From: a virus
Length of the DNA: 7,153 bases
IMG/VR virus record: IMGVR_UViG_3300002920_000097
Coordinates: 1-7,153 of that record
Strand: one strand, 5' to 3'
Part shown: positions 1-7,153 of the stretch, piece after piece
Numbering within the stretch: position 1 is the stretch's first letter
How the letters are laid out: each line of letters starts with the position of its first letter
The notes under the pieces: model-generated
What the model was told of the DNA's origin: nothing
The model's database searches: none
The model's input: the letters and a program-made list of their open reading frames with translations, nothing else
Translations under genes and position numbers: made by a program

Positions 1-77
1 CGCAGTCTCGGCTGGTGATGACCGGATACACAAGTGCTTTCATGTTTGCGCTCCTTGCCTGATGCTTGACCCTATTA
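1..77. repeat. Terminal direct repeat, left copy. It is identical to 7077-7153 and indicates a circular genome or assembly overlap with a 7,076-bp unit.
   Basis: Base-by-base comparison shows that 1-77 (cgcagtctcggctggtgatg...cttgaccctatta) equals 7077-7153. Bases 1-43 duplicate the first 14 codons of the minus-strand 96-aa gene that starts at 7119. Confidence 0.95.
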
Positions 78-101
78 TACACGTCTAAGCGTTCACTGCA
101 A
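44..101 (-). promoter_or_regulatory. Sigma70-type promoter and Shine-Dalgarno for the 96-aa / KorA-like operon (its gene start is at 43, equivalent to 7119).
   Basis: Read on the minus strand: TTGCAG (96-101), a 16-nt spacer, perfect TATAAT (74-79), AAGGAG (51-56), then 7 nt to the ATG at 43. Confidence 0.6.
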
Positions 102-157
102 TACCGTTCGTCGGGCAAAAACTACCGTTTGTCGGGTAAAAGCTACCGTTCGTCGCC
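102..157. repeat. Three tandem iterons with an exact 21-bp period and core TACCGTT(C/T)GTCG.
   Basis: The copies are TACCGTTCGTCGGG at 102-115, TACCGTTTGTCGGG at 123-136 and TACCGTTCGTCGCC at 144-157. The first copy directly abuts the -35 hexamer of the promoter at 74-101. Confidence 0.8.
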
Positions 158-5831: not shown

Positions 5832-5841
5832 TGCCATGCAA
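5812..5841 (-). promoter_or_regulatory. Candidate promoter for the gV-Rep-structural operon.
   Basis: Read on the minus strand: TTGCAT (5836-5841), an 18-nt spacer, TATGCT (5812-5817). The -35 hexamer is the reverse complement of the ATGCAA start of the plus-strand repressor gene. The 5817-5831 palindrome fills the spacer. Confidence 0.5.
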
Positions 5842-6147
5842 GAGGCTGAGCCGCTGGTAATCCTCAGGGAGCTAATCGAACGCGCAGCACGTGAAGTCGG
5901 CACCAAGACCGAGCTAGCGCGGCAAGTAGGGGTAAACCCTCAACGCATCAACGACTGGCAAGCCGGTTACCGGCCGTGTCCGCCCGAGGTTGTGGCCGTC
6001 ATCGCCGACATAGCCGGGATGCCCGGCAAGGAATGGTTAGCGCGTGCAACTCTTTGGTACGCAAGGGAAAAACCGTACTTCGAGAGACTGAGGCAAGCCG
6101 TGGGAAAAGCGTGGACGCGGACCGGCGCGGGCACCGTTACGTCTTGA
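5836..6147 (+). CDS. HTH DNA-binding protein, a repressor/immunity-type regulator (103 aa). It is the only plus-strand gene.
   Basis: AGAGGG lies 8 nt upstream of the ATG. The HTH segment is GTKTELARQVGVNPQRINDWQAG. Its divergent orientation relative to gV resembles the repressors of temperate inoviruses. Confidence 0.75.
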   Translation: MQEAEPLVILRELIERAAREVGTKTELARQVGVNPQRINDWQAGYRPCPPEVVAVIADIAGMPGKEWLARATLWYAREKPYFERLRQAVGKAWTRTGAGTVTS

Positions 6148-6252
6148 CTATGCGCCGCTTTGGCACTGGCCTTTGGTGAACAGGTGAAACTCGCAGCCAA
6201 AGTTCCACAATTTGTATTAGATCAATCGGTAAGTGATTTCCAATTGAAAAAT

Positions 6253-6281
6253 ATCATACCGTCAGCGTAGAATCTTTGCAA
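6253..6281 (-). promoter_or_regulatory. Near-consensus sigma70 promoter in the AT-rich island of the large intergenic region, firing leftward and antisense to the repressor gene.
   Basis: Read on the minus strand: TTGCAA (6276-6281), an exact 17-nt spacer, TATGAT (6253-6258). A plus-strand TTGAAA (6244-6249), 18-nt spacer, TAGAAT (6268-6273) is interleaved with it. Confidence 0.5.
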
Positions 6282-6570
6282 CGTCGGGAACGAGACGAAC
6301 AGACCCGTACACGACCACGCAGTAGAAGACAGTCTGAACAGGGACACGAACGAGCGGAAAACGGGAAGCAGCCTTGAAGGTGAACGGCTGGTGTGGCGCT
6401 TTGTGATGCTGTCGGTAGTAGTCGCGGTAGTACACGCCAACGGTATCCCCCCCGGTTCCCCTACGCGCGTCCACCGGATCGGGACGCGCTACAGCAAGCC
6501 GTCAACAACGCTACCACACGCGGTACGGACCTGCGACGCGCTCCGGGCGCGGACGGCGCCGCGCCGGGGA

Positions 6571-6646
6571 CCGCCTGCAGGGTTGGCGCACGAGAATGCA
6601 GGGTCTAGCAGGACGAGGGCAACTAGATCGCTTCGGCGAACGCGAC
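6571..6646. repeat. 76-bp junction repeat, copy B. It covers the last 7 codons and stop of the KorA-like gene plus 52 nt downstream.
   Basis: 69/76 bases are identical to 214-289 without gaps. The TAG stop is at 6623-6625. Confidence 0.9.
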
Positions 6647-6844
6647 GAGCTCATCAGCTTTCCGGACACGACGGACCGCGTTTGTGACACGCTGCAAACT
6701 GATGCTGTGAAGACGCGCAGCGTCAACCGGACGAAGCCCATCGACGAGCACGAGACGCGCAGCTTGGCGCGCAGGCCCGGCGCGCATGCGTATCAAGCGC
6801 GCGATGCAGTCAAAGCGCGCGTGCGTCATCAGATGTTCGGACAT
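6623..6844 (-). CDS. TrfB/KorA-like HTH transcriptional repressor (73 aa from ATG 6844, or 68 aa from the coupled ATG 6829).
   Basis: ARLVLVDGLRPVDAARLHSISLQRVTNAVRRV matches the recalled RK2 KorA segment ARGVLVDGKPQATFATSLGLTRGAVSQAVHRV. The in-frame ATG at 6829 shares its A with the upstream gene's TGA (TGATG). The C-terminus is VAFAEAI. Confidence 0.7.
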   Translation of the reverse strand: MSEHLMTHARFDCIARLIRMRAGPARQAARLVLVDGLRPVDAARLHSISLQRVTNAVRRVRKADELVAFAEAI

Positions 6845-7119
6845 ACAGACACGCGATGCACAGTGATCGTGTCGTCGAATGACATCTCGTGCGCGATCTC
6901 GTGCAGCTTGTCTTGCACGTCAACATACGCTGATCGCATCGCGAGCACTTCAACGCGCGAGACGCTGCGCACGTCATGCGTGCCACCGCGCTTGATCTTG
7001 TATCCATCGTCAATGAGGGCTCGGATAGCGTCGTCTTTCGTGTCGCGCTCGATGACGATGGGGGGCGCAGCGTATACGCAGTCTCGGCTGGTGATGACCG
7101 GATACACAAGTGCTTTCAT
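6829..7119 (-). CDS. Hypothetical protein (96 aa), first gene of cassette 2.
   Basis: The ATG at 7119 has a strong AAGGAG 7 nt upstream and a TATAAT promoter (seen in the equivalent copy at 44-101). I recognised no family. Confidence 0.7.
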   Translation of the reverse strand: MKALVYPVITSRDCVYAAPPIVIERDTKDDAIRALIDDGYKIKRGGTHDVRSVSRVEVLAMRSAYVDVQDKLHEIAHEMSFDDTITVHRVSVCPNI

Positions 7120-7153
7120 GTTTGCGCTCCTTGCCTGATGCTTGACCCTATTA
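7077..7153. repeat. Terminal direct repeat, right copy, identical to 1-77.
   Basis: See the feature at 1-77. An overlap of exactly 77 nt is what a de Bruijn assembler with k=77 leaves on a circular contig. Confidence 0.95.

Follow-up and report, generated by a model that had tools for sequence, protein, structure and literature searches.

Three AlgR-type boxes phased at 21 bp as a putative operator of an acquired regulator cassette in an inovirus

What reads three short direct repeats that are set exactly 21 bp apart against the promoter of a small phage operon? The repeats lie in the first 157 positions of IMG/VR virus record IMGVR_UViG_3300002920_000097, and the whole stretch of 7,153 nt analysed here is referred to as the window. 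A preliminary description had likened the repeats to plasmid iterons or centromeres and had named the KorA-like protein encoded by the operon as their ligand. Our analysis of the sequence points elsewhere: the array probably consists of three consensus boxes for a host AlgR-type regulator of the LytTR family, which would control, and probably activate, the promoter of the cassette.

The core TACCGTTYGTCG was found exactly three times in the window, with starts at 102, 123 and 144, against about 0.01 expected from shuffles, and none of 200 shuffles reached three matches; the three cores and their exact period were thus confirmed as first described. TRF reported a period of 21 with 2.6 copies, and a separate repeat search gave spacings of 21 and 21. 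The 12-mers of the array read TACCGTTCGTCG (102-113), TACCGTTTGTCG (123-134) and TACCGTTCGTCG (144-155), and on the plus strand they contain the 9-bp cores of box 1 (CCGTTCGTC, 104-112, unit 102-122), which is the promoter-proximal one, box 2 (CCGTTTGTC, 125-133, unit 123-143) and box 3 (CCGTTCGTC, 146-154). The cores are separated by two 12-bp spacers, GGGCAAAAACTA at 113-124 and GGGTAAAAGCTA at 134-145, also given for the plus strand, both of which follow the pattern GG-nn-AAA-n-C-n-A with an A/T-rich centre. Such phasing supports the proposal of a protein-binding array on one face of the DNA, the binding itself being predicted.

The array directly abuts the -35 of the promoter of a two-gene operon on the minus strand, in agreement with the preliminary description. 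The -35 hexamer TTGCAG (101-96) is only 2 nt from the core of box 1, and it is followed by a 16-nt spacer, the -10 hexamer TATAAT (79-74), the Shine-Dalgarno sequence AAGGAG (57-52) and the ATG of ORF96 (43-41). This promoter had been called near-consensus; the -35 matches TTGACA at only 3/6 positions and the spacer is 16 nt, and for these reasons we describe it as a consensus -10 with a weak -35. A generic promoter scan of the window did not list the TTGCAG-N16-TATAAT site. A pairing of this kind, with a perfect -10 and a poor -35, would typically mark a promoter that depends on an activator. Assuming that transcription starts 7 nt after the -10, the centres of boxes 1, 2 and 3 fall at about -41, -62 and -83. 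No plus-strand promoter was seen after box 3 when the sequence was read by eye.

The window carries an exact 77-nt terminal repeat, and because positions 1-77 recur exactly at 7077-7153, as expected of an assembler overlap, it represents a circular genome of 7076 bp. ORF96 and its promoter cross the contig junction, position 43 being the same as 7119. The phage is an inovirus, and nearly all of its genes are on the minus strand. ORF96 (6829-7119, minus), the first gene of the controlled operon, is followed by the second, which encodes a KorA/TrfB-like HTH protein of 73 aa (6623-6844, minus); next come a non-coding stretch (6147-6623) and, on the plus strand, YdaS103, a YdaS/HTH repressor-like gene (5836-6147). 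The other genes are all on the minus strand and encode an ssDNA-binding protein (ssDBP, 5797-5483), an HUH Rep assigned by Pfam to the REP_ORF2-G2P type (5486-4368), a likely major coat protein (3768-3514), a pIII-like protein (3510-1945), a pVI-like protein (1941-1624), Zot/pI (1620-811), ORF100 (783-481) and Xre72, a 72-aa Xre-type HTH protein (484-266). The pI was 47% identical to pI of Ralstonia phage 1 NP-2014, If1 and M13, and a whole-window DNA similarity search of the INPHARED phages, in near and distant modes, returned no match. A record look-up of contigs encoding the window Zot, P0130 or P0132 found none.

Xre72 showed a weak NCBIfam match (E = 0.001, below the cut-off) to the VC1465 family Xer recombination activation factor, which hints at XerCD-dependent integration. 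The non-coding region after the YdaS103 gene contains a palindrome, TTTCCAATTGAAAA, at 6237-6250 and a face-to-face pair of promoter-like sites, one on the plus strand (6244-6273, 10/12) and one on the minus strand (6281-6253). A single near-consensus box, CTGTTCGTC, is located at 6302-6294 on the minus strand, 12 nt upstream of the minus-strand -35 there.

A 79-nt direct duplication, the copies of which are 90% identical, brackets the array, the promoter, ORF96 and the KorA-like gene. Copy 1 (211-289, plus) takes in the 3′ end of Xre72 and the sequence downstream of it and forms the left boundary, copy 2 (6568-6646, plus) forms the right one, and the cassette together with one copy measures 719 bp. 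The last eight codons of Xre72 and of the KorA-like protein both come from the duplication, and the two proteins share the C-terminus AFAEAI. The closest full-length relative of the window, L167 (6583 bp), carries pVI, Zot, an ORF100-like gene, Xre72 (90%), YdaS103 (76%), ssDBP and Rep, and the array, ORF96 and the KorA-like gene are absent from it; its Xre72 3′ end runs directly into a non-coding region matching window 6202-6649. The same three elements are absent from a smaller relative, L048 (5338 bp). L167 and L048 are 85-90% identical to the window in ssDBP and about 58-62% identical in Rep, and each has a single homologous copy of the duplication, located in the main intergenic region. 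No phased array was found in the related inoviruses L048-L059, L167 and L168. Apart from the array, the promoter and the two genes, the inovirus is L167-like; these elements are an acquired accessory cassette that entered behind its Zot/Xre72 operon, and the duplicated region is a possible hot spot of the recombination that exchanges modules. A related prophage was found in a 322-kb contig together with a two-component sensor carrying a RisS periplasmic domain, which we take to be typical of Betaproteobacteria.

Since L167, L048 and further relatives do without the array, it is outside the core replication, packaging and maintenance functions of these phages. This bears on the reading in which the repeats serve replication, as iterons, or partition, as a centromere, and maintain an episomal replicative form. 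Three direct repeats with a 21-bp period and A-tracts are indeed seen in many plasmid iteron and parC arrays. However, the Rep of the window is a rolling-circle HUH protein, no iteron-binding initiator or partition NTPase was found, and the ten window ORFs scanned included no ParA, ParM or TubZ-type gene. Moreover, L167 and L048 retain the homologous ssDBP and Rep with no array, and the same boxes stand before pilin genes in chromosomes. With cores that match a regulator consensus at 12-bp spacers (see below), the likeness to plasmid elements was not upheld, and we consider a role in replication or partition very improbable. The repeats were also considered as terminase-binding (cos/pac) sites or transposon ends, an idea that was dropped because of the AlgR match and the chromosomal pilin contexts.

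The preliminary description had further related the array to CGGTA motifs at 6413-6446. This cluster (6413-6447), composed of two copies of CGGTAGTA and one of AACGGTAT, shares with the repeats no more than CGGTA, a 5-mer found 28 times in the window, and its TACCG starts follow one another at 12 and 16 nt instead of 21. The array-less L167 and L048 conserve the stretch, with CCGTG in place of CCGTT. The proposed relation could not be sustained; as judged from these comparisons, the cluster belongs to the core intergenic sequence and has no relation to the boxes.

A far closer likeness was found among the sites of AlgR. The three window cores matched the published AlgR consensus CCGTTCGTC at 9/9, 8/9 and 9/9 positions for boxes 1, 2 and 3, respectively, a consensus that was derived from footprints on algD, algC and rhlA and from ChIP-seq (PMC4064291, PMC4787818). 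Boxes 1 and 3 are thus identical to the consensus, and the core of box 2 is identical to the RB3 site of algD, CCGTTTGTC (PMC4064291). AlgR is a LytTR-family regulator, and the family binds direct repeats of 8-13 bp that are about 12 bp apart (PMC4064291). Because Pfam detected no LytTR domain in the ten window ORFs scanned, such a regulator would have to be encoded by the host. The array-bearing phage loci examined likewise contained no LytTR ORF.

The exact box pair at a 21-bp period was then found at no fewer than 47 loci, namely 31 loci of IMG/VR and 16 loci of GTDB genomes. With 22 fixed and 2 two-fold positions, we estimate that far fewer than 1 match per collection would arise by chance; neither the flanks nor the 8-9-nt spacers were related between loci. 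The array is absent from close relatives, and the box pair is present in many unrelated loci. An unbiased spacing scan of IMG/VR for CCGTTCGTC-N(2-32)-CCGTTCGTC, covering at least 120 loci, placed 27/106 distinct contexts in the gap-12 class among the matches listed, followed, again among the matches listed, by gap 18 (10 contexts), gap 10 (9) and gap 13 (8), so that 12 bp was the strongly favoured gap; only newly fetched loci were counted, which biases these figures against the 21-bp class. The consensus of the 27 gap-12 units, (t/g)A-CCGTTCGTC-GG-nn-AAA-n-C with an A/T-rich spacer centre, is followed closely by the window units. The longest array seen was in a Burkholderiaceae MAG (L034, 5388-5471), in which three perfect boxes and a fourth, degenerate one, CACCGTTGGTCG, are all set at a 21-bp period.

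In these units the conserved part was a G+C-rich 9-13-mer and not the A-tract, and this bears on the possibility that no protein is involved, with the repeats acting as a phased A-tract bend like an UP element or as an RNA element at the 3′ end of a long operon. A-tracts do occur every 21 bp, and the array would be transcribed if the Zot-Xre72 operon reads through. Besides the position of the conserved bases, the RNA fold of 95-270 speaks against it, being no better than shuffles on the minus strand (z = +1.4), and Rfam gave no match to the window. We see scarcely any chance that the repeats work in this way.

The chromosomal neighbours of the box pair pointed towards AlgR. In L046 the order is ispH, box pair, fimU/GspH, pilV, pilW and pilX, and the fimU-pilVWXY1 operon is a classic target of phospho-AlgR (PMC4064291). 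In Pseudomonas the FimS/AlgZ-AlgR signal controls the minor pilins of the type IV pilus. Compared with the pair upstream of this fimU-like gene, the boxes of the window are inverted relative to their promoter. In L032 the pair is about 600 nt upstream of an ORF with a PilY1 domain (>1768 aa), a 100-aa ORF lying between them, and in L033 and L038 it stands just after a LytTR response-regulator gene.

The position of the pairs relative to promoters was also regular. For 90 non-redundant arrays, sigma-70-like sites with at least 9/12 matches were collected from the 70-nt flanks. On the same strand the predicted -35 elements began 8-10 or 20 nt after the last core, and on the opposite strand 1-3 or 10-13 nt from the first core, with only two single outliers (27 and 29 nt) outside these four classes. 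The window, with an offset of 2 on the opposite strand, falls in a class shared with six other loci (L003, L017, L028, L064, L103 and L151). Offset classes that are one helical turn apart in each orientation would fit an asymmetric, monomeric activator in contact with RNA polymerase, the analogy being with class I and class II sites, which depend on orientation.

A second inovirus with boxes was found in L028, a phiLf/phiXv2-like Xanthomonas/Stenotrophomonas prophage whose structural genes are 85% identical to those of the Xanthomonas phages phiLf2 and phiXv2. A perfect box pair (6580-6612) is located just after its Zot operon, and 1 nt from the pair a leftward TTGTTT-N16-TATAAT promoter reads into an unrelated, unannotated accessory gene of 106 aa. 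The layout is the same as in the window: Zot operon, boxes, leftward promoter and accessory gene. The pair was absent from the published Xanthomonas inoviruses phiXv2 and fSU1.

We then considered the cassette genes themselves. A word-indexed search revealed no homologue of ORF96, and an exhaustive search revealed a small family of 95-99-aa proteins (P0121-P0128). The AlphaFold (AF2) model built from the family alignment has an alpha/beta fold with a pLDDT of 92 and found no match in the PDB (best E = 0.3). ORF96 had been considered as a hidden LytTR or other DNA-binding fold, and this was dropped in view of the missing PDB match; because a confidently modelled fold matches nothing there, ORF96 is neither LytTR-like nor a recognisable DNA binder. 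No boxes were found upstream of its homologues in L170-L174. The KorA-like protein matched Pfam PF16509 with E = 4e-4, which is below the cut-off, homologues at about 50% identity do carry PF16509, and a homologue at 74% identity is encoded just upstream of an ORF read by its motifs as a TrwC-type relaxase. On account of these homologues and the relaxase-like neighbour, the earlier statement that the operon ends in a plasmid-type KorA/TrfB-like protein is a fair one.

The step from this protein to the array is a different matter. In that proposal the ORF96-korA operon is autoregulated through binding of a phage-encoded regulator (the KorA-like protein, Xre72 or YdaS103) to the repeats, and several points agree with it: the last gene of the operon encodes an HTH protein of the KorA superfamily, cassettes of this type are commonly autoregulated, the array and the genes were acquired together, and a weak Xre72-like ORF adjoins the boxes in L103. 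The boxes nevertheless recur independently of these phage proteins. At the 47 or more loci with identical boxes and spacing, which amount to 1.3 Mb, no homologue of ORF96 or of the KorA-like protein was found, and the only matches to window proteins were weak ones to Xre72 in L103 and to YdaS103 in L028, the latter 6 kb from the pair, and those to ssDBP/Rep in L126, which is another inovirus. Conversely, the loci of KorA-like homologues L175 and L176 have no array, and Xre72 and YdaS103 are both present in the array-less L167. A repeat search of 1-300 detected no inverted repeat suited to a dimeric HTH protein. Nothing links the KorA-like protein to the boxes, neither an inverted repeat by the promoter nor arrays in L175 and L176, and it lost its place as the obvious ligand; binding by any of the three phage regulators seems unlikely to us.

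The taxonomic spread of the box pair raises another alternative. More than 100 viral contigs carry the pair at 12-bp spacing, among them inoviruses of at least two lineages and many tailed-phage contigs, where it is near the terminase module, and it was also found in bacteria of four phyla, the genomes being those of Alpha-, Beta- and Gammaproteobacteria, Bacteroidota, Verrucomicrobiota and Actinomycetota. We know of no AlgR-type specificity described for Actinomycetota, Bacteroidota or Verrucomicrobiota, and the range is unexpectedly wide for one DNA specificity. This LytTR specificity may be conserved very widely; otherwise, the motif would have to be read by some other factor. The Verrucomicrobiota with the exact pair included Opitutaceae, and in Chitinophagaceae the pair was next to a LytTR gene. 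It was also seen in an Actinomycetales MAG and in the isolate genome of a Nocardia sp. (L043), where a 966-aa SARP/NB-ARC regulator starts 47 nt away; L042, L039 and L033/L038/L045 are the other loci from these Actinomycetota, Verrucomicrobiota and Chitinophagaceae.

A different conserved factor, encoded by the host or by a mobile element, could thus be the binder, the AlgR match being coincidental or true for a subset of hosts. The presence of the pair across at least four phyla, including the isolate Nocardia genome, would agree with this, as would the neighbourhood of the arrays: BLAST and phmmer clustering of neighbouring ORFs revealed no shared small DNA-binding protein, only terminase large subunits at 1-2.5 kb. 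Several arrays are, in addition, next to sigma-54 promoters. Near-perfect sites of this kind (TGGCACG-N4-TTGC) were found by the box pairs in L006, L015, L003, L013, L017 and L035, either 8-9 nt after the boxes or 45-60 nt away and reading into them. Against such a factor stand the 9/9 identity to an experimentally defined site combined with the family-typical 12-bp gap, the pairs before minor-pilin and pilY1 genes and beside LytTR genes, and the fact that LytTR regulators are themselves widespread. We regard another factor as improbable, marginally less so than a regulator of the phage.

Two features of the tailed-phage contigs may be added. In L001-L031 and many of L060-L166, the pairs were often 1-2.5 kb upstream of the terminase large-subunit gene and often less than 300 nt from the end of the locus or contig, which suggests that the pairs flag promoters located at the ends of genomes or where early and late regions meet. 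In L003, L013 and L017, repeated GTGGAACA motifs surround the sigma-54 promoter.

Returning to the AlgR-type regulator as the probable reader of the array, we infer the following course of events. Monomers of the host protein would occupy the 9-bp cores, 12 bp apart, head-to-tail on one face of the DNA, and the bound, probably phosphorylated, regulator would recruit RNA polymerase to the poor -35 and so switch on ORF96 and the KorA-like regulator. Expression of an accessory regulator of the phage would in this way be tied to a two-component signal of its host. The main alternative for the sign of regulation is repression by occlusion of the -35, the boxes being inverted relative to the promoter. 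If an AlgR-like regulator drives the cassette, phage gene expression would be directly linked to the surface signalling of the host. The type IV pilus is a plausible receptor of this phage, and if the module gates the acquired regulator cassette, phage behaviour would depend on the pathway that controls type IV pili.

Two features are of note here, an array on a phage accessory cassette and a consensus pair that is common in phage genomes, and the second, broader one, a by-product of this analysis, may matter more than the cassette itself, as it asks how conserved the DNA specificity of LytTR regulators is. Our searches of the literature found no description of a phage-wide box pair at fixed promoter offsets, and a search with the array 12-mer gave coincidental matches only (a 16S probe and a soybean sequence). 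We put forward tentatively, as a possibility that falls somewhat short of an even chance, that AlgR-type (LytTR) box pairs at fixed promoter offsets are a widespread phage module that reads a two-component signal of the host, one linked to the state of the surface, the envelope or the type IV pilus. If so, LytTR DNA specificity would be far more conserved than is currently recognised. The box pair also offers a ready-made motif for the prediction of phage promoters that depend on host signals.

Among known systems, the plasmid iterons and the IncP KorA operator share with the window tandem repeats of about 21 bp near a promoter and a KorA-superfamily gene in the operon. Unlike iteron plasmids, the window has no iteron-type initiator. 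KorA operators are palindromes, whereas the window array has no palindrome and its repeats are common where KorA-like genes are absent. Overall, the preliminary description was right on the geometry and on promoter control, and mostly wrong as an interpretation, since it missed the kind of element and its ligand; the element is probably an operator array of the known LytTR/AlgR kind.

The resemblance is closest to the AlgR sites of P. aeruginosa (algD RB1-RB3, algC ABS1, fimU ABS1/2, mucR and czcR), the 9-bp cores of which are identical to those of the window. As with RB3 of algD, which is near -45 and is oriented opposite to RB1 and RB2 (PMC4064291), one window box is located immediately upstream of the promoter core. 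In P. aeruginosa, most known sites occur singly or scattered or are degenerate, and 12-bp-spaced repeats are not their usual arrangement (PMC4064291). The window, by contrast, has three boxes that are perfect or nearly so and keep a strict 21-bp phase; they belong to an accessory cassette of a phage, in a host that is not known to be Pseudomonas. The LytTR operators of Gram-positive bacteria consist of at least two imperfect direct repeats of 8-13 bp at an activator-dependent promoter, with the exact spacing being critical (PMC4064291). With those of AgrA (P2/P3), ComE, PlnC/D and VirR, the window shares direct repeats about 12 bp apart that are placed next to the -35; it differs from them in the sequence of the core, in having three boxes rather than two, and in the arrangement of these boxes, which are inverted relative to the promoter and bring a core to within 2 nt of the -35.
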